54,839 nucleotides of DNA, from assembly GCA_964569715.1 (NCBI GenBank), contig CAZMUD010000001.1, forward strand, positions 1 through 54,839. The letters are read 5' to 3'. Source of the stretch: an uncultured Dehalococcoidales bacterium. Lineage in GTDB: Bacteria > Chloroflexota > Dehalococcoidia > Dehalococcoidales > UBA2162. The translations under genes and the position numbers were made by a program. Below are positions 8,407 to 19,508 of the stretch, one piece after another (the stretch's first letter is position 1; every line of letters starts with the position of its first letter). The notes beneath the pieces were generated by a model. That model saw only the letters and a list, made by a program, of their open reading frames with translations. It made no database searches and was not told where the DNA came from.

Positions 8407-9102
8407 ATGGTCAAGCCGGTTCAGGTGATGGTGGTTACTCCGCATCCGGACGATGCTGAATTTGGCGTCGCTGGAACGGTGGCTCGCTGGACACGTGAAG
8501 GGAAGGACGTCATATACGCGGTCTGCACCAACGGCAACAAGGGCACTACTGACCCCAACATGAAGCCGGATGAACTGGCAAAAATCCGAGAGAAAGAACA
8601 ACTGGCGGCGGCCAAGCTGTTAGGGGTAAGAGAGGTCATCTTCCTGGGCTATCCAGACCAGACTTTGGAAGATACGCCTGAGTTCCGGAAAGAGATTGTG
8701 CGCTTGATTAGGATGTATAAGCCTGAGACAGTGGTAACTGCTGACCTATACCGGCGCTATCTCTGGCATCGTGACCACCGAATCACCAGCCGGGTTACAT
8801 TAGATGCCGTTTTCCCTTATGCCAGGGATTTGCTTGCCTACCCTGACTTGCTGGAAGAAGGTCTTCAACCTCATAAGGTGAAAGAGGTATTACTCTGGGG
8901 TGCTGAGGAACCCAATTACCGCTCTAATATCACAGACACCTTTGATATCAAAATTGCTGCCCTGCGCTGTCATAAGAGCCAGGTAGGACATAACCCATCC
9001 CCAGAAATGGAAGGATGGTTGAGAGAGCGGGCTAAGAATATGGCCAAGGGAGAGGATTACGAACTAGCCGAGGCTTTCTACCGACTAGAGATATGGCGGT
9101 AA
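8407..9102 (+). CDS. PIG-L family deacetylase (MshB/BshB-like)
   Basis: VMVVTPHPDDAEFGVAGT...H.DH motif (WHRDHR). GGAGG lies 10 nt upstream of the ATG. Confidence 0.8.
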   Translation: MVKPVQVMVVTPHPDDAEFGVAGTVARWTREGKDVIYAVCTNGNKGTTDPNMKPDELAKIREKEQLAAAKLLGVREVIFLGYPDQTLEDTPEFRKEIVRLIRMYKPETVVTADLYRRYLWHRDHRITSRVTLDAVFPYARDLLAYPDLLEEGLQPHKVKEVLLWGAEEPNYRSNITDTFDIKIAALRCHKSQVGHNPSPEMEGWLRERAKNMAKGEDYELAEAFYRLEIWR

Positions 9103-9126
9103 TTAACTCCTGCCCACAGGAATGAG

Positions 9127-9345
9127 CTAAGATGAAAGCCAGAGTACATCCCCGCAAAGATTGGGATTATGGGAGCGAGAGGAAAAGGCAGCAAATTCGT
9201 CTTTCTCCTTCTTTAACACCGTAGGAGCACCGTGGCCGGGGTATATTGGGGTGTCGTCGGGCAATACAAAAATCTTCTCGGTTATGGATTTGATTATCTG
9301 CCTGAAAGCATCTGGCGACCCTGTCTTACCCGGACCCCCGGGGAA
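9127..9345 (-). pseudogene. C-terminal remnant of an MBL-fold metallo-hydrolase
   Basis: Minus-strand frame reads ...FPGGPGKTGSPDAFRQIIKSITEKIFVLPDDTPIYPGHGAPTVLKKEKDEFAAFSSRSHNPNLCGDVLWLSS* (stop 9127-9129). It has no start codon. The frame runs up into the neighbouring gene's terminator hairpin and closes at a stop at 9424-9426. Confidence 0.55.
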
Positions 9346-9395
9346 ATCTGAATATGTCGCTTCCCAGCTGGGACAGACGACCTGTAAAAAGAGGA

Positions 9396-9423
9396 GGGGC
9401 TCCTGCCAGTGGGCAGGAGCCCC
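9396..9423 (-). terminator. intrinsic terminator of the carboxylesterase gene
   Basis: Perfect 12-bp stem GGGGCTCCTGCC / GGCAGGAGCCCC with loop AGTG, followed on the minus strand by CTCTTTTTAC. Confidence 0.75.
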
Positions 9424-9438
9424 CTAAATTGAGCGGGT

Positions 9439-10998
9439 TTATTCTTGTGGGGTAGCACGAGCCTCCAATATCCCGGATTTTACCTGTAGCGTATCTCCGA
9501 TATCAAGGTACTGGTCAGTAGCCGCCTCGTAGGCTGGCCACGTGACTAGGCCTTCTACACTTGGGTCTCCGGTTGCAGCAAACTGAGCCCACATAGTCAT
9601 CATGGCTTCAGCTACCCTTTCATCCATCTCGTCAAGCCCTGGGTCCGGCTGTTTGGCGCCGCCACTCTGGGGGAGCCTCAGGTTCCACAGTTCAGCTATC
9701 CCCTCCAAACGGCCGAAAACGTATTGTACCTCAAGCCCATGAAAAGCTACAACACCTTCCTCCCTCCAGCCAGTCGGCACATGAGTGAATACATAGGCAT
9801 ACCCCTTGGATTTGCCAGTGCTCATAACGGGAGCCCAGTCCGCAACCCCCTCAATCATTCCCGGAAAATCCGCGCTGTTACAACCGATGATGAAGGGAAC
9901 ATCGTTCTGCCTGCCCGCTTTGAATATGTTCTCCGGGGTATCTGGCAGAGACCAGCCATCCACCGTTATGACGCCAACATAAAGACCAAAAATGCCTGTT
10001 GCAGTAGTGGCGATCTCCTGCCAGCTCAAGGCGCGCAGGGCAGCCAGCACATCTTCTTCCCCGGCGACGCCGAGTTTAGCCGCCAGTTTCTCACCCATCT
10101 CTTCCGCTTTCTTTAAACTGGAAGCAGCAAGGGGTGGTGTTACTGATTCTGCGATTGCCCAAACTCCGCTTTCGATGATAGCCCGGTGGAAAAGCCCTTT
10201 GGCTAAAGGTGAAACCATCAAGTTATGAGTCTTCGCACCGCCCCCGGACTCGCCAAAAATCGTGACATTGTTGGGGTCACCACCGAAGGCAGCGATGTTC
10301 CTCTGCACCCACTTCAAGGCAGCGATTAAGTCTAATTGGCCGTAATTTCCAGAAGCATTGATGCCTGATTCCTCGGTAAGTAAGGGGTGAGACAGGTAAC
10401 CTAGCGCTCCCAGCCGGTGGTTGACGGTTACTACCACTACACCGTGCTGGGGCAGTGCTGTGTTGCAACAGCTCAGCGAGTTGCCGGAAAGAATGCTTAA
10501 GCCGCCGCCATGGAACCAGACCATTACAGGAAAACGCTCGGTCGTCTTTTTGGCCGGCGTCAGGACGTTTAAGTAAAGGCAGTCTTCGCTTAGCTCCCCT
10601 AGCCCAGTTATTACCTCCACCTGCGCGGCCCGATTGCTCCACTGAGTGCATTCCCGGATTCCCGACCAGGGAGCAGCCGGTTGCGGTGGCTTCCACCTCA
10701 AATCACCCACGGGCGGAGCGGCATATGGGATTCCTCTATAGATACGCACCTCGTTTCCAACATCACCCTGCACTGTCCCGGAAACGAATCCAGTGTCTAT
10801 TTCTACTGGATCAGCGAAGACTGCAGCCAAGTCGCTCTGCAAGGACGCTACCTGAGCCTGTGCGGCGTCCTTATCAGCTACCGCCTCATCATATTCTTCC
10901 TGAGCTACACCGCAACCGGCCAGCACCGGCACTATCAGCGCCAGGACCAGGAACAGGACTACAAATTTGTACCAAAAGTTCCTTTTTAGCTGCCTCAT
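9439..10998 (-). CDS. type-B carboxylesterase/lipase family lipoprotein
   Basis: Lipobox LAGC after a hydrophobic N-terminus; EDCLYLNV signature; nucleophile motif FGESGGG. GGAGG lies 8 nt upstream of ATG 10998 (ORF track start is 11025). Confidence 0.85.
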   Translation of the reverse strand: MRQLKRNFWYKFVVLFLVLALIVPVLAGCGVAQEEYDEAVADKDAAQAQVASLQSDLAAVFADPVEIDTGFVSGTVQGDVGNEVRIYRGIPYAAPPVGDLRWKPPQPAAPWSGIRECTQWSNRAAQVEVITGLGELSEDCLYLNVLTPAKKTTERFPVMVWFHGGGLSILSGNSLSCCNTALPQHGVVVVTVNHRLGALGYLSHPLLTEESGINASGNYGQLDLIAALKWVQRNIAAFGGDPNNVTIFGESGGGAKTHNLMVSPLAKGLFHRAIIESGVWAIAESVTPPLAASSLKKAEEMGEKLAAKLGVAGEEDVLAALRALSWQEIATTATGIFGLYVGVITVDGWSLPDTPENIFKAGRQNDVPFIIGCNSADFPGMIEGVADWAPVMSTGKSKGYAYVFTHVPTGWREEGVVAFHGLEVQYVFGRLEGIAELWNLRLPQSGGAKQPDPGLDEMDERVAEAMMTMWAQFAATGDPSVEGLVTWPAYEAATDQYLDIGDTLQVKSGILEARATPQE

Positions 10999-12337: not shown

Positions 12338-12461
12338 GTTTGTCTGATTCTGTTGGCTCGGCCTCTTCCTTAAGCTATCACCACAGCCCCTGTAGTCAAA
12401 AATAAAGGCATTAATCCCCGTTTCATATATAATGGGGGGGGGCTTGATGTGGAGTGATAGT

Positions 12462-12971
12462 ATGAGCGGAGAGTTAAAATATATTACCTTCAATACCGAT
12501 ATGGGTTGGGTAGGAATATTGGCTTCGGCAAAAGGGCTGCTCGACACTACCTTGCCCCAGCGCTCAGCTCAAGAAACACATCAGCTATTAGGTGAGAGCG
12601 TAAATCAGGCTACCTGGTCTCCTCGCCTGTTTGATGACCTAATGGAACGCCTCAAGGTTTACTTTAGCGGTCGTAAGGCAGCCTTCCCTGATGAGCTTGA
12701 CCTGTCGGGGGCTACCCCCTTTCAGCGTGAGGTATGGGAGGCAACCAGGCTTATTCCTTATGGTGAGACAAGGAGTTACCTCTGGGTGGCTGAACAGATT
12801 AAGAAACCAGGGGCAGCGCGGGCAGTGGGGCAGGCTCTAGGTAGAAACCCTCTGGCTGTTATCGTCCCCTGTCATCGGGTAGTAGCCAGTGATGGCACGC
12901 TCGGTGGCTTCGGTGGAGGACTGGAGATGAAGCGGCGTCTTCTTTGTCTGGAAGCCTCAGCTATTAGTTAA
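12462..12971 (+). CDS. ogt: methylated-DNA--protein-cysteine methyltransferase
   Basis: Active site IVPCHRVV, plus TPFQREVW and YGETRSY. GGAG lies 7 nt upstream of ATG 12462; a TATAAT at 12428-12433 overlaps the track start 12432. Confidence 0.9.
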   Translation: MSGELKYITFNTDMGWVGILASAKGLLDTTLPQRSAQETHQLLGESVNQATWSPRLFDDLMERLKVYFSGRKAAFPDELDLSGATPFQREVWEATRLIPYGETRSYLWVAEQIKKPGAARAVGQALGRNPLAVIVPCHRVVASDGTLGGFGGGLEMKRRLLCLEASAIS

Positions 12972-14351
12972 GGTAACACCAGAATAACTTGTCCCCCTAT
13001 CAAACATCGTGTTTATTCTAAGTTCTAAAAAATCCAGTTCGTATTTCTTAATCAGCCCTTCATCAGCAAAGCTAAAGTAGCTGTTGTCACCTATTACGAT
13101 ATGGTCTAACACCTTAATCTGAACAATATTGCCAACAAAGACCAGGTCTCTGGTGAGTTGTTTATCGCTCTTGCTGGGGGCAGGGTCACCCGAGGGGTGG
13201 TTATGGACAAAAACCACAGCAACGGCACGGTGCTCAATGGCACTTTCTACAATCTCACGGGGACGGATTGGGATACTCTCCAGCGTGCCTTCAAAGAGAG
13301 TGACCGTGTCAATAATCTGGTTTCGGCTATTTAGGTAGATAGCCTTGAATACCTCTTTCTTCAGGTCTCGCATTGAGTAGGAGAGGTAATCAAAAACCTC
13401 TTTGGAGGACTGATATAGGGGCTTATCAATAATTTTCTTTTTAAGAACCTCGGTGGGTAATTCATGTAGAAGCTTAATACAAAACATACAACTGGAAGTA
13501 AACCCAACCTGCTCTAGCTCTTGCGGAGAAGCTGACAGCAGTCCCCTGATGTCCTTGAACGCTTTAATGCACTCTTTTGACAGCCGTTTGCACTCCCGAG
13601 AGGACAAGGCAAGGCTTAACAATAATTCAATAACCTCTTGGTCACTAAATCCCTCAAAACCTGACCTGATAAACCTCTCCCGTAACAGTGACATACGTCC
13701 TCTTAATAGAACCAATGAAGTTATCTCCTGACTTTCCCTTGGCTTTATTAACATCCACTCACCTGCCCGTCTTATGAGACCAAATTGGTGATTTCTCATC
13801 ACCTCTATCATTTCGTTTGCTCCACATTCAGCGAGGGGATATGTGCAAATGGCGAGCATACGATACTTGCCGATGATATTATTTACCTCTTCTTCATAAT
13901 CAGCAAACTTTCTCCAACCTCCCTTCTCAAGCCAAGCCGCATCCCCTGTCACTCTTATGCCATCATAACCCTTAGCCAGGGCTTGATTGAGCTTATCAAT
14001 CCAGGCACCAAGAACCCTTTGTTTATTGAAAGTACCGCCTTTAAGATACCATTCGGTATGCGGAATAATCTCTATTTGTCCTCTTTCCAGATATTGAGCG
14101 AAATTAGGCACAGTCTGCCTCATTGCTTCCTCAGCTTCTTTTTCACTACAGGGCTTTGAAGTAACCCAGATACAAGACTCATTACTTTCTAAACCTACCT
14201 TGAAATAAGGCACCAGAATATCAATTAAGTCTTGTTTAGTATCATAAAATGAACAAAGGTGCATGCCCCAAGGGACAGCACCTACAGCATCAATCCCCGT
14301 TTCTCTAGCTCTTTCTTCCAGTGATGTTCGTAATGTACCTTGCGAAGCCAT
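12957..14351 (-). CDS. MEDS-domain / RadC (JAB-MPN) fusion protein
   Basis: The N-terminal half has the MEDS hallmark PWGMHLCSFYDTKQDLIDILVPYFKVGLESNESCIWVTS. The C-terminal half is a full RadC module ending in HNHPSGDPAPSKSDKQLT. Start chosen at ATG 14351 (GGAGGTG upstream); the track ORF extends to 14444. It overlaps the ogt 3' end by 15 bp. Confidence 0.75.
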   Translation of the reverse strand: MASQGTLRTSLEERARETGIDAVGAVPWGMHLCSFYDTKQDLIDILVPYFKVGLESNESCIWVTSKPCSEKEAEEAMRQTVPNFAQYLERGQIEIIPHTEWYLKGGTFNKQRVLGAWIDKLNQALAKGYDGIRVTGDAAWLEKGGWRKFADYEEEVNNIIGKYRMLAICTYPLAECGANEMIEVMRNHQFGLIRRAGEWMLIKPRESQEITSLVLLRGRMSLLRERFIRSGFEGFSDQEVIELLLSLALSSRECKRLSKECIKAFKDIRGLLSASPQELEQVGFTSSCMFCIKLLHELPTEVLKKKIIDKPLYQSSKEVFDYLSYSMRDLKKEVFKAIYLNSRNQIIDTVTLFEGTLESIPIRPREIVESAIEHRAVAVVFVHNHPSGDPAPSKSDKQLTRDLVFVGNIVQIKVLDHIVIGDNSYFSFADEGLIKKYELDFLELRINTMFDRGTSYSGVTLTNS

Positions 14352-14480
14352 CCTCACACCACCTCCAACGTTGCTAAAATCCCTTATCCGTATATTATAT
14401 TGCACCTGCCAACATATGGCATAAATAATGCCAATTGGGGACAAGATTTAATAGTTTTTATGATACTTTTATGCCAATTA

Positions 14481-14525
14481 GAGACAACGGGTTAGTGTTG
14501 GTGGCTAGGGGAGCCAGTGAAGCTC
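14481..14525. repeat. 45-bp direct repeat, copy A (partner at 18696-18740)
   Basis: gagacaacgggttagtgttggtggctaggggagccagtgaagctc versus gggacaacaggttggtgtttttagctaggggagccagtgaagctc. The last 22 nt are identical, and I count about 39/45 identical overall. Confidence 0.8.
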
Positions 14526-14597
14526 ATAGGCTTTGGCTGTGGACTGGAAATGAAGCAGCGTCTTCTTTGTCTAGAAGCCACAGCCAGTATTGGGTAG
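14504..14597 (+). pseudogene. ogt 3'-end remnant
   Basis: With one small deletion it reads ASE..LIGFGCGLEMKQRLLCLEATASIG*, compared with intact Ogt ASDGTLGGFGGGLEMKRRLLCLEASAIS*. The nucleotide similarity to 12886-12971 is visible by eye. Confidence 0.7.
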
Positions 14598-14606
14598 AGT
14601 ATTACC

Positions 14607-17003
14607 CTATCCCCTGCGGACAGGCTCCTCCCCAGCAACTTTATTCTTGTCTACCTCCTCACCTGCCAGCGGCAATTCAATAAAGAAGGTAACACCTTGT
14701 CCCGGTTTACTTTCGGCGTATATCTTGCCACCGTGCTCGGTCACAATGCCATGGCAGGCGCTAAGCCCTAAGCCGGTGCCACCCCTATCCCCCCTGGTGG
14801 TGAAAAATGGGTCAAAGACCCTGCTGAGGTTTTCGACTGGAATCCCGGGACCATCATCAGCAAACGAAATCCGGATACAGTCCTTCCCCCGCTGAGTTTT
14901 GATGGTGAGCTTCCCCTCACGGTCTGCCTCGGTCATGGCCTGCTCGGCATTGAGAATGATGTTCAAGAAAACCTGCTGAATTTGACCAAAATCGCCAACC
15001 GTCTCTGGCAGGCTGGGAGCAAGCTCAACTGCAAGGTCAATATTGCCCGATTTCAACTCGTAAGCCCTTAATTCCAGAGTCCTTCCCAGAATCTCGTTTA
15101 TGTCCAGACATTCCTTCTTTGGCCCACGGCGGCGGGCAAAGGTCAGCAGATTCTCCACCACTCTGGCAGCACGTCGAGCTTCATTATGAATCCTCTCTAA
15201 ATCCTGGCTGATTTCCTGGCTAGTGCTTTTTTTCATAAGACGCTCAGAAAATCCTATTACCCCGGTAAGAGGGTTATTTATCTCGTGGGCAACGCCGGCG
15301 GCCAGCTCACCAATAGAGGCCAGGCGACTGGAGAGAGCAAGCTCCTGCTGCAGCTCCTTCTCCCTCTCCTCCGCCTGCTTAAGCTCGGTGACGTCTATGA
15401 TAACCCCTCTCATGCCGACAGGCTTGTTTTCACGGGTAATAGCAGAACCATATACGATAGCGGGGAATGTGCTGCCGTCCTTCCTCAGTGCTGTGTATTC
15501 ACTACCGCCTATCTTTTTCCCACTTAATACCCTTCGCATATCCTCTATGACTCTGTCTTTGTCCTCCGGAATAAAGAGTTCAATACAATTCAACTCTTTC
15601 CGGACATCCTCTAAAGTATAGCCAAAGGCTAGAGTGCCCTGGCGGTTGGCGAAGGTGAGATTGCCTTTTTCATCAAGTTCATATACGGTTTGTGGTAAAG
15701 AATTAACTATGTCTATGAATCTCTTCCTGGTCTCCTTGAGTGCATCCTCTACCTCTTTGCGCTCGGTGATGTCCCGGATAAAAGCAACATTGGCACGCTC
15801 CCCCTTGTATGTCGTATAGGCACTGGTAAGCTCAATGGGAACCTCGGTGCCATCTTTTCTGATAATGGACATCTCGAAAAGTCCCGGCATAATTGCACCC
15901 CGCATCTTTTCTCCATGTCTTTCTAGAGAAGCCTGGCGGTGTTCGGGGTGGACGAGGTCGAAAAACGACATACCGAGCAGTTCCTTCCTGGAGTAGCCGG
16001 TGATGTGGGGCCACTCATCGCTAACGAAGGTTTGGGTGGCATTTCCCTGCTCAGTATCCTGCAGCATGACAACAGCCTCCCCCACTTTGCCACCCAGATT
16101 GACGAGGGCGCGATATCTCTCTTCTGACTCCCGCAGAGCCTCCTCTGCCTGCTTGCGCGCGGTGATGTCCCGGATAATGGTCTGCACAATTCCTTTTTCT
16201 TCATCAACCACCCTTGAGCTTAAGTCAATATCAAAGAGGGTCCCATCTTTTCTCTTGGCTTCTGACTCGAGTCTCACGTGCCCTATCTTGACTAGCTGCT
16301 GGAACTCTCTTTCCATTCTTTCAAACTGACTTTCAGAGAAGAACTGTGCCATATTCATCTGTAGAAACTCGTCTCTACTGTAACCTACTAATTCTTCAGC
16401 CCTCTGATTTATATCCAGTATTTTACCGTGAGAGTCTTGCACAATTGCGATGTCATTCAATAGTTGGAACAAGTTTTTAAATTTTTGCTCTGACTCCCGC
16501 AGTGCCTCTTCAGCCCGCTTGCGCTCGGTGATGTCACGCATCGCGGCTAGACAAACTTCTTTTCCATACCATGTGAAGTAGCTAACTGATATCTCTGTGG
16601 GGAAAACACTTCCGTCTTTCTTCCTGTGATAACATACAGGAATGTATTCTGTGGCAGTCATTGTTGCGCGGCGAGTCTTCTCAGGTTCTGCTGAAAAATC
16701 GGTGTTATTCATTTGAAGTGCTTCTTCCCGGCTATATCCATACATCTCCATTGCAGCGTTGTTCAAATCAAGGATTTCACCTGTATCAACCTCTATTAAA
16801 AAGAGGGCATCAGAACTCAAGTCAAATAATTGTTGATACTTCTCCTCACTCTCCCGTAGCGTCTGTTCCGCCCATTTGAGCCCACTTTCTAGTATTTCGA
16901 ATTCGGCGACCTGTTGGCGCAACTCTGTCAGTTTACTTATGACTTGCTCTTTTGTCTTACCTTCGTCAGATAACATAATCCAACCCCCCTTTTGACAGTT
17001 CAT
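14607..17003 (-). CDS. cytoplasmic multi-PAS sensor histidine kinase
   Basis: Repeated PAS-like blocks are separated by ITERK.AEEALRESE linkers. H-box HEINNPLTGV; HATPase_c motifs DDGPGI and GGTGLGLS; no TM segment. ATGA overlap with the upstream regulator; an alternative start is ATG 16976. Confidence 0.9.
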   Translation of the reverse strand: MNCQKGGWIMLSDEGKTKEQVISKLTELRQQVAEFEILESGLKWAEQTLRESEEKYQQLFDLSSDALFLIEVDTGEILDLNNAAMEMYGYSREEALQMNNTDFSAEPEKTRRATMTATEYIPVCYHRKKDGSVFPTEISVSYFTWYGKEVCLAAMRDITERKRAEEALRESEQKFKNLFQLLNDIAIVQDSHGKILDINQRAEELVGYSRDEFLQMNMAQFFSESQFERMEREFQQLVKIGHVRLESEAKRKDGTLFDIDLSSRVVDEEKGIVQTIIRDITARKQAEEALRESEERYRALVNLGGKVGEAVVMLQDTEQGNATQTFVSDEWPHITGYSRKELLGMSFFDLVHPEHRQASLERHGEKMRGAIMPGLFEMSIIRKDGTEVPIELTSAYTTYKGERANVAFIRDITERKEVEDALKETRKRFIDIVNSLPQTVYELDEKGNLTFANRQGTLAFGYTLEDVRKELNCIELFIPEDKDRVIEDMRRVLSGKKIGGSEYTALRKDGSTFPAIVYGSAITRENKPVGMRGVIIDVTELKQAEEREKELQQELALSSRLASIGELAAGVAHEINNPLTGVIGFSERLMKKSTSQEISQDLERIHNEARRAARVVENLLTFARRRGPKKECLDINEILGRTLELRAYELKSGNIDLAVELAPSLPETVGDFGQIQQVFLNIILNAEQAMTEADREGKLTIKTQRGKDCIRISFADDGPGIPVENLSRVFDPFFTTRGDRGGTGLGLSACHGIVTEHGGKIYAESKPGQGVTFFIELPLAGEEVDKNKVAGEEPVRRG

Positions 17004-17545
17004 CCGCCAATGTGAGTGGCATGCAGAAAAGTATTGACGGCAGCAATAATGCCCTCTTCGCCGAAAGGCTTATTCATAACCCCAAAAGGACCTTGGGCCA
17101 GAGCCCGCGCCATCATTTTACTATCGGGGTAGCCAGTGATGATAATTACTGGCAACCTGGGCTTGACCATTTTCATCTGGCGAAAAAGCTCGGCGCCATC
17201 CATGCCAGGCATTTTGAGGTCAAGAAAAACCAGGGCAAAATCCCCTTTTTTCACCAGTTCCAATCCTGCCAAAGCATCCCCAGCCAGCATCACGGTGTGC
17301 CCTAGCTCCTCCAGGGTCTCCTTGAATAGCGTCCGAATCATCTCCTCGTCATCGACGACAAGGATAGTTGCCTTAGTTCCAACCGAGTTTCGTTGTAGCC
17401 ACTCATCAATTGAGTCCTTCTCAAACCTCCAATTACGGCCTACCTTGGCTGCCGGGATATTACCTCGCTTGAGTAGCCTGTATATCGTCTTCTCAGTGAC
17501 CCGCAGATAATCAGCTATTTCTTGAAGAGTCATAAGCTCTGTCAT
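17000..17545 (-). CDS. response regulator: excisionase/MerR-type HTH + receiver domain
   Basis: LTLQEIADYLRVTEKTIYRLLKRGNIPAAKVGRNWRFEKDSIDEWL is followed by ILVVDDE...LVFLDLKMPGMDG...KP. Confidence 0.85.
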   Translation of the reverse strand: MTELMTLQEIADYLRVTEKTIYRLLKRGNIPAAKVGRNWRFEKDSIDEWLQRNSVGTKATILVVDDEEMIRTLFKETLEELGHTVMLAGDALAGLELVKKGDFALVFLDLKMPGMDGAELFRQMKMVKPRLPVIIITGYPDSKMMARALAQGPFGVMNKPFGEEGIIAAVNTFLHATHIGG

Positions 17546-17574
17546 ATTGCCTTCCTCTCCTCAATTTCTACGAT

Positions 17575-18420
17575 TCATTGGGCTCTGGTGTGTGCTGATG
17601 TGGCACCGCTATACACGTTATCTTCTGGGCGAATGGACTGCTCTTGGGTTTGTCCAGTCTCGCCTTTTTTAAGAGTTACAAAGACAGTTTTCCTGGGCCT
17701 GTCTTTTAGCCTTGGTACGGCTGCGACTCTCTTAAGAAGGCCGGGACTGGCCTCCCCGTTAAGCGGTTTTTCACTTATTTTTTCTATCTCGGGCATCTCT
17801 CCTAACTTATTCAGGATATCCGCCATCGGTGCAGCCTGTGGTAAGACAACCGTCATGGCAGTGCCCTCCTGCCAAGAGCCAACCACTTGCAGCACGCGGG
17901 ACCGAAGCATCTCCTCCACTTGACTGGCAAATCTCATCAACTGGTTAGCCTCAATAGGTGGAAGTATAACCAACTGCATCTCCTCAGGCATGCTGGTGAA
18001 TTCTTCTGCCTCTTCGGCAAGTCTCTCTTCATACTCAATCAGGGATTTCTTGGTCTCTAAGGCGGTGCGTATACCGGTAGCGACTCTATCTAGGTCAAAC
18101 GGTTTGACAATATAGTCTAAAGCCCCCAACTTCATAGCCACAACAGCGGTACCAACGTCATTGACAGCCGTTACCACGATAACGGCCGTATTGTGGCGAT
18201 TTGACCGTATCTTCGTCAATACCTCCAAACCAGATATACCATGCAACCTTATATCCAGCAAAACTACATCGAAGTCCTCTGTGTCCAGTTTGGCGAGGGC
18301 ATCATTACCAGTGAGAACCGCAGTGCACAGGTAGCCCCGTTCAGTTAGTTCCTCATAGAGGACATCACATACCACCTGCTCGTCGTCCACAATAAGGATA
18401 CTTGGCTTTTTGGAAACCAT
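17575..18420 (-). CDS. response regulator: receiver domain + unassigned ~150-aa C-terminal region
   Basis: ILIVDDEQVV...VVLLDIRLHGISG...IVKP, then a C-terminal part with no motif I recognise. GGAGGTG lies 5 nt upstream of the ATG. Confidence 0.8.
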   Translation of the reverse strand: MVSKKPSILIVDDEQVVCDVLYEELTERGYLCTAVLTGNDALAKLDTEDFDVVLLDIRLHGISGLEVLTKIRSNRHNTAVIVVTAVNDVGTAVVAMKLGALDYIVKPFDLDRVATGIRTALETKKSLIEYEERLAEEAEEFTSMPEEMQLVILPPIEANQLMRFASQVEEMLRSRVLQVVGSWQEGTAMTVVLPQAAPMADILNKLGEMPEIEKISEKPLNGEASPGLLKRVAAVPRLKDRPRKTVFVTLKKGETGQTQEQSIRPEDNVYSGATSAHTRAQ

Positions 18421-18490
18421 TTTTCACCTCCCCTTACTTTACTAGCATACGCTTATGCGCTGACCTTGTTCCAGACACCACTTGCAGCAA

Positions 18491-18703
18491 CTGATACTAA
18501 TCATCTCTTAAAGTTCACTAAAGTCTGTAATAGTTTACTAAAGTCCATACCAAAATGTCAAGAGGTATGGGCAAGATTTGCGCCAGTTCGGGACAAACTG
18601 ATACTAATTATCTCCTAAAGTATACTAAAGTCTGAAATAGTTTACTAAAGTCCATACCAAAATGTCAAGAGGTATGGGCAAAATTTGCGCAGTTCGGGAC
18701 AAC
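18491..18703. repeat. 107-bp tandem direct repeat (2 units, 18491-18597 and 18598-18703)
   Basis: The units differ at about 8 positions including a 1-nt indel. Each carries three (A/C/T)CTAAAGT boxes and the inverted repeat CCATACC-N13-GGTATGG. Confidence 0.9.
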
Positions 18704-18740
18704 AGGTTGGTGTTTTTAGCTAGGGGAGCCAGTGAAGCTC
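18696..18740. repeat. 45-bp direct repeat, copy B (partner at 14481-14525); contains a short ogt-derived fragment
   Basis: See copy A. gccagtgaagctcggcgg matches ogt gccagtgatggcacgctcggtgg with the same internal deletion as remnant A. Confidence 0.75.
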
Positions 18741-19508
18741 GGCGGCAGATAATTTAGCTCTGTACAGCCTTCGCTTAGCCTCAGAGACCCCTTTTATTTT
18801 CAGGTTCAAGAAATCCAGTTCGTATTCCTCAATCAGCCCTTCACCAGCAAAGCTGAAGTATCTATTGCTGCCTATTATGATATGGTCTAAGACCCTAATC
18901 CGCATGATACTCCCGGCATAGACCAGGTCTCTGGTCAGCTCTTTATCACTCTTGCTGGGCTCGGGGTTGCCTGAGGGGTGGTTATGGGCAAAAATCAGCG
19001 AGGCGGCATTATTTTTAATAGCACTTTCCACAACCTCACGGGGGGAGACAGAGCTGCTATTTATTGTCCCTTCAAAGAGGTCTTCAGTTTCAATAATCTG
19101 GTTTTGGATATTTAGATAAATAACCTTGAATACCTCTTTCTTGAGGTCTCGCATTGAGTGGTAGAGATAATCAAAAACCTCCTGGGCGGACTTATAAATA
19201 GGCTTATCAATAATTTTTTCCTTAAGGAATTCCCTGGCTACTTCCTGCGTCAGCTTGATACCAAAGGCACTATGAGCACCAATGCCGTCTATTCGCTGTA
19301 ACTCTTCGGGGGGAGCTTCCAGAACTCCTCTCAGGGTCTTGAATTTCTTTAGAGCCTCCTTTGCCTGTCGTTTACAGTCCTTACGGGGTGTGCCCAGGCT
19401 TAGAAGTAACTCAATAATTTCGTAGTCATGGAAGCCCTTAAGCCCCGACTTAATAAACTTTTCTCGCAGCCTTTTCCTGTGTCCTAGTGATATACTATCT
19501 GAAGGCAT
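18720..19508 (-). CDS. radC: RadC-family JAB/MPN protein
   Basis: HhH region IDGIGAHSAFGIKL and JAB motif HNHPSGNPEPSKSDKELT. It lies 31 nt downstream of dnaE on the same strand. The C-terminal ~25 aa read into the ogt-derived scar. Confidence 0.9.
   Translation of the reverse strand: MPSDSISLGHRKRLREKFIKSGLKGFHDYEIIELLLSLGTPRKDCKRQAKEALKKFKTLRGVLEAPPEELQRIDGIGAHSAFGIKLTQEVAREFLKEKIIDKPIYKSAQEVFDYLYHSMRDLKKEVFKVIYLNIQNQIIETEDLFEGTINSSSVSPREVVESAIKNNAASLIFAHNHPSGNPEPSKSDKELTRDLVYAGSIMRIRVLDHIIIGSNRYFSFAGEGLIEEYELDFLNLKIKGVSEAKRRLYRAKLSAAELHWLP

Follow-up and report, generated by a model that had tools for sequence, protein, structure and literature searches.

The locus described here raises the question of why a complete RadC module should stand behind a domain of the kind that is mostly found at the input end of histidine kinases and transcriptional regulators. 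The gene lies in a stretch of 54,839 nucleotides (nt) from an uncultured Dehalococcoidales bacterium (assembly GCA_964569715.1, contig CAZMUD010000001.1, positions 1 to 54,839), referred to below as the window, and it encodes an N-terminal MEDS domain followed by RadC (MEDS-RadC). RadC is present in most bacterial lineages (PMC3239186), and the RadC-type JAB domain has been predicted to process nucleic acids or nucleotides; this guess of a nuclease or nucleotide-processing enzyme is based only on fusions to DNA-handling domains (PMC3239186; PMC5512222). A 2025 review treats the function and catalytic activity of RadC as still unresolved (PMC11981726). MEDS is a predicted sensory domain, listed as inactivated KaiC, and its binding of a small hydrocarbon derivative or another signal is a literature prediction only (PMC5847659; PMC11197473).

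MEDS-RadC is a real variant of RadC, conserved and not described so far; it is not a new kind of system. The evidence for this is given first, followed by the proposed function and its alternatives.

Domain architecture of MEDS-RadC

The gene and the parts of its product are the following.

12957..14351, minus strand: MEDS-RadC gene, the second, sensor-fused RadC paralog; 464 amino acids (aa), continuous open reading frame (ORF), matches to Pfam MEDS and RadC and to NCBIfam PRK00024
14362-14366, minus strand: Shine-Dalgarno-like GGAGG, 9-10 nt before the ATG at 14351 (direct sequence reading)
13785..14261, minus strand: MEDS domain, KaiC/RecA-like fold without Walker A (residues 31-189, PF14417)
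13692..13739, minus strand: flexible linker, site of PAS insertion in the long forms (residues 205-220)
13416..13688, minus strand: RadC N-terminal helical domain, both helix-hairpin-helix (HhH) signatures degenerate (residues 222-312)
13467..13526, minus strand: degenerate second hairpin (residues 276-295, PQELEQV-GFTSSCMFCIKLL)
13053..13412, minus strand: RadC-type JAB domain (residues 314-433, PF04002)
13164..13205, minus strand: JAMM metal motif, H383-N-H385-P-S-G-D-P-A-P-S393-K-S-D396, with E333 as the upstream Glu

The minus-strand frame 12957..14444 runs without interruption in the ORF and translation reading. The ATG at 14351 is the likely start of MEDS-RadC and aligns with the start of the homolog in the related locus L091, where the upstream GGTGGTGTGA is conserved as well. 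The four peptide strings quoted in the initial annotation are all found in the translation: WGMHLCSFYDTKQDLIDILVPYFKVGLESNESCIWVTS at residues 28-65, HNHPSGDPAPSKSD at residues 383-396 and GFTSSCMFCIKLL at residues 283-295 of MEDS-RadC, and IDGIGAHSAFGIKL in the canonical paralog encoded at 18720-19508 (minus strand).

Both halves of the 464-aa product scored above the Pfam cut-offs. PF14417 (MEDS) matches residues 31-189 with 168.6 bits (cut-off 29.8, E 1.3e-49; profile positions 2-161 of 161), and PF04002 (RadC) matches residues 314-433 (E 2.3e-43, 147.4 bits, cut-off 22.1). The NCBIfam RadC equivalog PRK00024 spans residues 224-434 end to end (195.5 bits, cut-off 180), and TIGR00608 gives 172.8 bits (cut-off 133.85). 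These matches and the uninterrupted ORF bear out the initial reading of MEDS and a complete RadC module on a single polypeptide. At the N-terminus of the RadC module, UPF0758_N reaches 24.3 bits on residues 224-282, under its cut-off of 27.1, and no Pfam match to HHH_2 was obtained for MEDS-RadC. The protein thus has the sequence, the metal motif and the fold of the RadC family and lacks its N-terminal UPF0758_N/HhH G-h-G feature, while its N-terminal half has both the profile and the fold of MEDS (PF14417, "iKaiC"). Pfam at E<=0.01 detected no receiver, HPt or HisKA/HATPase domain in the protein, and no phosphotransfer or DNA-binding HTH domain was found by Pfam.

The AlphaFold2 model, built on an alignment of 59 homologs (mean predicted local distance difference test, pLDDT, 85), consists of two confident halves (MEDS pLDDT >90) separated by residues 205-220, which are disordered (pLDDT <50). 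The JAB domain is matched to PDB 2qlc, the only solved RadC, by structure (Foldseek E 4.9e-13, template-modelling (TM) score 0.88, 40% identity) and by sequence (hmmsearch E 5.2e-35). For the MEDS half, Foldseek against PDB returned FlaH 4yds, Sso2452 2w0m, KaiC CI 4tl7 and PH0284 2dr3 (TM 0.55-0.59, probability 1.0), that is, ring-forming KaiC, FlaH and RecA-superfamily ATPases. The Walker A pattern GxxxxGK[ST] is present in 0 of the 120 family members. MEDS is an inactivated KaiC/RecA-like fold without a P-loop; the fold matches and the missing Walker A reproduce its published label of "inactivated KaiC" (PMC5847659).

Recurrence of the architecture

MEDS and RadC are both present in 111 of the 120 best database clusters (41-99% identity), whose source assemblies come from JGI, ENA, NCBI and Logan. 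Two architectures occur, MEDS-RadC and MEDS-PAS(1-2)-RadC. About 63 members are short forms like the window gene, and about 45 are long forms of 567-813 aa, in which one or two PAS domains interrupt the protein exactly at the disordered linker. The last PAS of the long forms ends in DIT[EDA][RL]K, and the first RadC helix follows about 15-20 residues on, as at PAS-to-kinase junctions. In P0007 (593 aa), P0012 and P0014 (582 aa) and P0042 (732 aa) the insert between MEDS and RadC is barely or not recognised as PAS by Pfam, and it may be a different or divergent sensor domain.

A 99%-identical copy, with the same neighbours as in the window, is found in the independent assembly L096 (run SRR8556704). 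The only name carried by database entries is "DNA repair protein RadC", and most entries are nameless; the organisms named for the clusters are Dehalococcoidales, or Chloroflexota or Chloroflexi metagenome-assembled genomes. The taxonomic range rests on few named entries because the scan of a genome collection with the family alignment was dominated by generic RadC motifs and returned ordinary RadC from many phyla and one Dehalococcoidales locus. The supposition that the architecture had not been described holds for the papers searched, none of which mentions both MEDS and RadC, though recent RadC biochemistry may have been missed; for public databases it does not hold, since the architecture recurs there.

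A diverged paralog with a conserved catalytic centre

The intact JAB/MPN metal motif noted in the initial annotation (HNHPSGDPAPSKSD) was confirmed, and its conservation extends to the family: E333, H383, H385, S393 and D396, together with the D416-H417 pair, are invariant in 59 of 59 aligned members. The His/Ser/Asp part of the motif is also intact in five outliers missed by the regular expression.

The N-terminal domain of the RadC module has a different history. Signatures were compared between 114 fusion-type sequences and their canonical RadC neighbours. The canonical neighbours carry invariant GHRKRLRE, LGTPRKDCK and I-[DN]-G-I-G-[PA]-H-S-A-F-G-I-K, and at these positions the fusion type has xxLTxLQE, L-[VCA]-L-P and G-[IVL]-[TPD]-P-x-C-x-F-x-I-K, with a one-residue deletion at the second hairpin in 98% of the 114 sequences. 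In the window protein, G-I-G is replaced by G-F-T with the one-residue deletion, and the Gly of the first hairpin is gone. The degeneracy of the helix-hairpin-helix, first noticed in this one protein, is therefore a property of the whole family: GIG has become G-[IVL]-[TPD], and the first hairpin Gly and the basic GHRKRLRE are lost as well. The helical fold and the helix-loop-helix geometry of the second hairpin are retained in the AlphaFold2 model. The net charge of the domain is +2.2 in the fusion type versus +5.9 in canonical RadC (p 1.5e-4).

Pairwise identity within the same eight genomes shows where the divergence is concentrated. For the N-domain it is 54% in the fusion type versus 83% in canonical RadC; for JAB it is 73% versus 79%, and for the fusion-type MEDS 54%. 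In a distance tree, a single branch splits the canonical from the fusion-type RadC modules, whose mean identity is 79% among canonical modules, 61% among fusion-type modules and 51% between the groups. Within the RadC-module tree, long (PAS) and short forms are heavily interleaved, which reflects either repeated gain and loss or noise. Fusion-type RadC is a separate paralog clade, in which the N-domain evolves faster and is less positively charged, and this domain is under weaker constraint than its canonical counterpart. Judged from the sequences, catalysis would have been conserved while the signatures for binding the DNA backbone decayed, a combination consistent with the initial suggestion of a lost DNA-binding clamp.

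Two minor observations concern these domains. A four-Cys metal site in the RadC N-domain (C254, C261, C288, C291) was considered and rejected: the four residues are conserved in just 26%, 75%, 68% and 49% of the 114 sequences. In L003, the canonical RadC (8979-9773) has HNHPSGNPEPGTHD, with Gly in place of the JAMM Ser, whereas the motif is complete in the MEDS-RadC next to it.

Tandem arrangement with canonical radC

The two genes that accompany MEDS-radC in its relatives are also present in the window.

18720..19508, minus strand: canonical radC, 262 aa, intact HhH; ancestral direct upstream neighbour of the fusion gene
12432..12971, plus strand: ogt-type O6-alkylguanine-DNA alkyltransferase gene, convergent (PF01035, E 7.8e-34)

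The canonical paralog is matched by the Pfam RadC model and scores 42.2 bits with UPF0758_N and 230 bits with PRK00024, and 21.1 bits with HHH_2 (cut-off 27, E 3.5e-4). The genomic context was sampled in seven independent related loci, which encode six different proteins (54-68% identity to the query) and take in short forms, long forms and one form without MEDS. In 7 of 7 loci the gene order is (dnaE)-radC-[MEDS-(PAS)-RadC]-<ogt, with a spacer of 97-323 nt between the radC genes. The 3' end of ogt usually overlaps the second RadC gene, and dnaE often lies just upstream of radC. The PCHRV active site of ogt is present in the window and in all seven loci. The window and its relatives also have flanking genes in common: Lit and dnaE are syntenic on one side, and on the opposite side PIG-L, GNAT, GT4 and Acetyltransf_6. 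A role of this RadC in defence or on a mobile element was rejected, as the fusion has no PADLOC match and lies in housekeeping synteny (Lit, dnaE, radC, ogt, PIG-L, GT4).

Distribution of the MEDS subfamily

The MEDS half was searched alone against 1.84 billion representative proteins, with 6608 matches, 1928 of them below 1e-30. The best 150 matches share 54-75% identity over about 195 residues; among these 150 at least 78 are MEDS-(PAS)n-HisKA or HisKA_3-HATPase kinases, three carry RadC, and the rest are mostly truncated MEDS-PAS. A second search found the same subfamily (50-71% identity) in stand-alone, HTH-linked or PAS-linked form in Deltaproteobacteria, Nitrospirota, Planctomycetota, Bacillota, Acidobacteria, Methanobacterium, Methanosarcina, Thorarchaeota and Dehalococcoidia. 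In a neighbour-joining tree, built to see if the RadC-attached MEDS domains go back to a single origin, RadC-attached and kinase-attached domains interleave, although the nearest neighbour belongs to the same class in 104 of 111 cases. No second MEDS gene was found in the window or in the related loci.

The MEDS module is general and strongly constrained, and no local invention. Across distant bacterial and archaeal phyla, the subfamily (proteins P0121-P0268 and P0283-P0398) is 50-75% identical whatever output is attached. Such conservation is unusually strong for a sensor domain and implies a common ligand or partner; the signal of the subfamily is probably a general one.

Origin and proposed mechanism

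In a Dehalococcoidales-like Chloroflexota lineage, radC was duplicated, giving two adjacent genes. The first copy stayed canonical, with a basic N-terminus, two HhH hairpins and JAB. The second copy kept the invariant JAMM centre, let the DNA-backbone-binding signatures decay and gained MEDS at its N-terminus. In many lineages its linker also received one or two PAS domains.

The function of the second copy is probably that of a signal-gated RadC hydrolase, a regulated, sub-functionalised paralog with RadC in place of a kinase transmitter. The input would be formed by MEDS, alone or together with PAS, and the RadC module at the usual position of the kinase transmitter would be the output. Binding of a ligand or partner to MEDS could alter the oligomeric or conformational state of the protein, so that metal-dependent hydrolysis by JAB would be switched on or off; the gating could be transmitted via the linker or via oligomerisation. 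The substrate class would be the same as for canonical RadC, which the published prediction from gene and domain context makes probably a nucleic acid or nucleotide. The fusion paralog would probably work with, or in parallel to, the neighbouring canonical RadC, and not via the two-component system that adjoins it in the window.

The complete RadC module behind MEDS and PAS, at the position of a histidine-kinase transmitter, argues that RadC is a catalytic effector worth regulating. MEDS-RadC would thus recast RadC as a regulated effector and offer a new handle on its function. Each genome would also provide a matched pair for biochemistry: a canonical RadC that binds DNA and, next to it, a sensor-gated RadC whose DNA-binding signatures are weakened.

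Several points weigh against this reading. MEDS-less members (257-262 aa), which occupy the same genomic slot, nest inside the fusion-type clade, so the paralog can function without MEDS and MEDS can be lost again. The AlphaFold2 model contains no confident MEDS-JAB interface (predicted TM score 0.51) and does not fix the relative placement of the halves. No ligand has been demonstrated for this MEDS subfamily and no biochemical activity has been established for any RadC (PMC11981726), so the "output enzyme" is tied to no reaction. The conserved gene order may derive partly from shared ancestry in one order rather than from functional coupling. Finally, the loss of HhH signatures and charge is indirect evidence, as the helix-loop-helix geometry is kept and the N-domain is still mildly basic. 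The initial proposal of a signal-gated JAB enzyme devoid of its DNA-binding clamp is retained in a milder form: a weakened clamp is reasonable in view of the lost signatures, the lower charge and the intact JAB.

MEDS could alternatively be not a ligand sensor but an inactivated KaiC/RecA-like assembly or targeting module, which oligomerises JAB or docks it on a partner and thereby replaces the lost HhH for reaching the substrate. Canonical RadC, in a JAB-JAB heterodimer as in MPN pairs, or an ATPase ring of the RecA, RadA or KaiC type could serve as the partner. The fold matches to ring-forming ATPases fit this view, as do the invariant tandem with canonical radC and the decay of DNA-binding signatures in step with MEDS gain; the 50-71% identity of the often stand-alone subfamily across distant phyla is what a conserved partner interface would give. 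However, in most cases the same MEDS is the N-terminal domain of a PAS-histidine kinase or an HTH regulator and stands where the sensor does, the classic place of an input, and the PAS domains behind MEDS also point to signalling. An assembly or targeting role is a serious possibility that we nevertheless consider unlikely.

A bolder reading, drawn by analogy with MPN/JAB heterodimers, is a two-subunit enzyme in which canonical RadC binds DNA via its HhH and MEDS-(PAS)-RadC gives signal control. MEDS would then sense one common small molecule or cellular state (e.g., a methylating or halogenated C1 compound, or a nucleotide), and RadC-type nucleic-acid processing would be switched on beside ogt under alkylation stress. 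This scheme is speculative and, as a whole, improbable. If it were true, RadC would be the first JAB-fold enzyme shown as the output domain of a one-component signalling protein, and a ligand-controlled version would be available for finding the RadC substrate.

The inserted two-component cassette

In the window, the two radC genes are separated by a block of two-component genes, and the following features bear on its origin.

14607..18690, minus strand: inserted block, comprising two 95-nt tandem repeats, a REC gene, an HTH_17-REC gene and a histidine kinase gene with four PAS domains
17575-18420, minus strand: REC gene of the inserted block (Pfam)
17000-17545, minus strand: HTH_17-REC gene of the inserted block (Pfam)
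14607-17003, minus strand: 4xPAS histidine kinase gene of the inserted block (Pfam)
14522..14589, minus strand: relic of the MEDS-radC stop and the antisense ogt 3' end, just past the kinase stop; 81% identical to 12899-12966
14475..14525, minus strand: relic of the radC 3' end (AELHWLP*) and 30 nt downstream; 84% identical to 18690-18740
14394..14422, minus strand: candidate promoter-like site ATGCCA-17-TATAAT (consensus scan, 10/12 matches), its TATAAT aligned with L091

From 14525 down to the start codon of MEDS-RadC, the window is collinear with the L091 region that runs from the radC 3' end through the spacer to the MEDS-radC start. By this alignment, 14475..14525 is what survives of the ancestral radC/MEDS-radC junction. 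The block is also present in L096, the same-species contig, and absent from all seven related loci, in none of which (0 of 7) do two-component genes lie between the two radC genes. The junction relics and the absence of the cassette from these relatives mark the kinase and regulators as a lineage-specific secondary insertion.

It had been supposed that MEDS-RadC belongs to the pathway of the PAS kinase and two regulators beside it, as an input or an output, and that the genes share a transcript. The two sets of genes lie on the same strand, MEDS-radC following 255 nt past the kinase stop with no terminator-like site between, and the arrangement is the same in the independent same-species contig. 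Against this, the protein has no REC, HPt or HisKA domain, radC lies directly upstream in 7 of 7 related loci, the relics at 14475-14589 mark the cassette as inserted, and MEDS-radC has retained an upstream region of its own, which is conserved and includes a promoter-like TATAAT. The supposed link was accordingly abandoned as very improbable.

Some further properties of the block were recorded. No exact match to the window kinase was found in public assemblies. The HTH_17-REC regulator gene overlaps the kinase start by 4 nt, and its product matches the PADLOC model mad1 (E 7.9e-13) only via its 50-residue HTH. On the plus strand, the relics join a block end (like 18690-18740) to a block start (like 12899-12966), a junction of the tandem-duplication type. 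This suggests duplication or recombination of the ogt-to-radC segment, with the kinase cassette occupying the MEDS-radC slot in one copy.

Non-catalytic duplicate or assembly artefact

The second paralog could also be a decaying or non-catalytic duplicate, i.e., a pseudoenzyme or a regulatory decoy of canonical RadC. Its N-domain evolves much faster than the canonical one and its UPF0758_N score falls under the cut-off, as would suit such a fate. The invariant JAMM residues and D416-H417 pair in 59 members, the intact motif in the five outliers, the 73% identity of JAB across genomes where MEDS shares just 54%, and an ORF that is intact in more than 100 clusters all speak for a maintained enzyme, and decay is given very little credence here. 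An assembly chimera or a frameshift fusing two separate genes, which nothing favours except that the architecture is rare in published work, is in practice excluded, since the same junction occurs in JGI, ENA, NCBI and Logan clusters and in the 99%-identical copy from SRR8556704, the ORF is continuous and homologs align across the linker.

Relation to known systems

Canonical RadC (YicR, UPF0758; 2qlc) and MEDS-RadC share the complete module, the E...HxH...S..D site and the JAB fold, and the fusion type is about 51% identical to the canonical paralogs from the same genomes. The fusion differs in having MEDS, in lacking GHRKRLRE and the hairpin glycine signatures, in its less basic N-domain and in forming its own clade.

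The N-terminal MEDS is 50-75% identical to that of MEDS-(PAS)n-kinases, MEDS-HTH proteins and stand-alone MEDS (DcmR, EtnR2, RsbA-type; "iKaiC", Galperin et al. 2018). MEDS-(PAS)n-histidine kinases resemble it, moreover, in the kind of PAS array and in the DITxxK with which the last PAS ends. In MEDS-RadC, however, a RadC hydrolase module stands as the output where those proteins have HisKA/HATPase or HTH.

Published fusions of RadC include HhH, ArdC-RadC, DnaG primase-RadC and RadC-DinG helicase (Iyer et al. 2011, 2017; 2025 DinG review; PMC3239186, PMC5512222, PMC11981726). As in these proteins, the RadC-type JAB is a module of a multidomain protein. Their partners are DNA-processing or anti-restriction domains, mostly on mobile elements, and none is a signalling domain, whereas MEDS-RadC has signalling partners and is chromosomal and syntenic with dnaE, radC and ogt.

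RadA/Sms, a RecA/KaiC-like ATPase with a Lon-protease-like domain, offers an analogy only (family relationship: PMC5512222). Both proteins pair a KaiC/RecA fold with a peptidase fold in a DNA-metabolism neighbourhood. The families are unrelated, MEDS is without Walker A, the domain order and the catalytic domain differ, and membership is not implied.

Candidate regulatory sites and other features of the loci

The structured RNA search of the window with Rfam at gathering thresholds gave no match. In L007 (8867-9250) and L008 (2328-2711) a gene for a chagasin-type peptidase inhibitor (Inhibitor_I42) lies between the MEDS-less RadC and ogt. In L094 (1-4550), a primase-polymerase/D5 gene, small HTH genes and a phage-type integrase gene lie a few kb upstream of radC, with no dnaE in the 10 kb shown; a mobile element is inserted near this radC.

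The 3' ends of MEDS-radC and ogt overlap by 15 nt in the window (12957-12971) and by 16-103 nt in relatives (L001, L009, L091, L094). Antisense interference or coupled termination of the two genes is possible at this conserved convergent overlap.

The interval from radC to the first regulator gene contains, at 18489-18690, two tandem 95-nt repeats that are 94% identical. A promoter-like site, TTGACA-18-TAAACT, and the motif TTGTCCCGAACTGGCG are present in both, and the pair looks like a duplicated promoter or operator region at the cassette edge.

Upstream of MEDS-radC there are two copies (14429-14444 and 14472-14487, minus strand) of the motif TTGTC[CT]C[CT]AATTGGCA, whose core CCAATTGG is palindromic. 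A variant is found at 18581-18596 (minus strand), and the corresponding spacer of L091 has two close variants (TTGTCCCCAATTGACA). At <=3 mismatches there are four occurrences in the window versus 0.6 expected, a number also reached in 2 of 100 shuffles. This palindromic motif is a possible operator.

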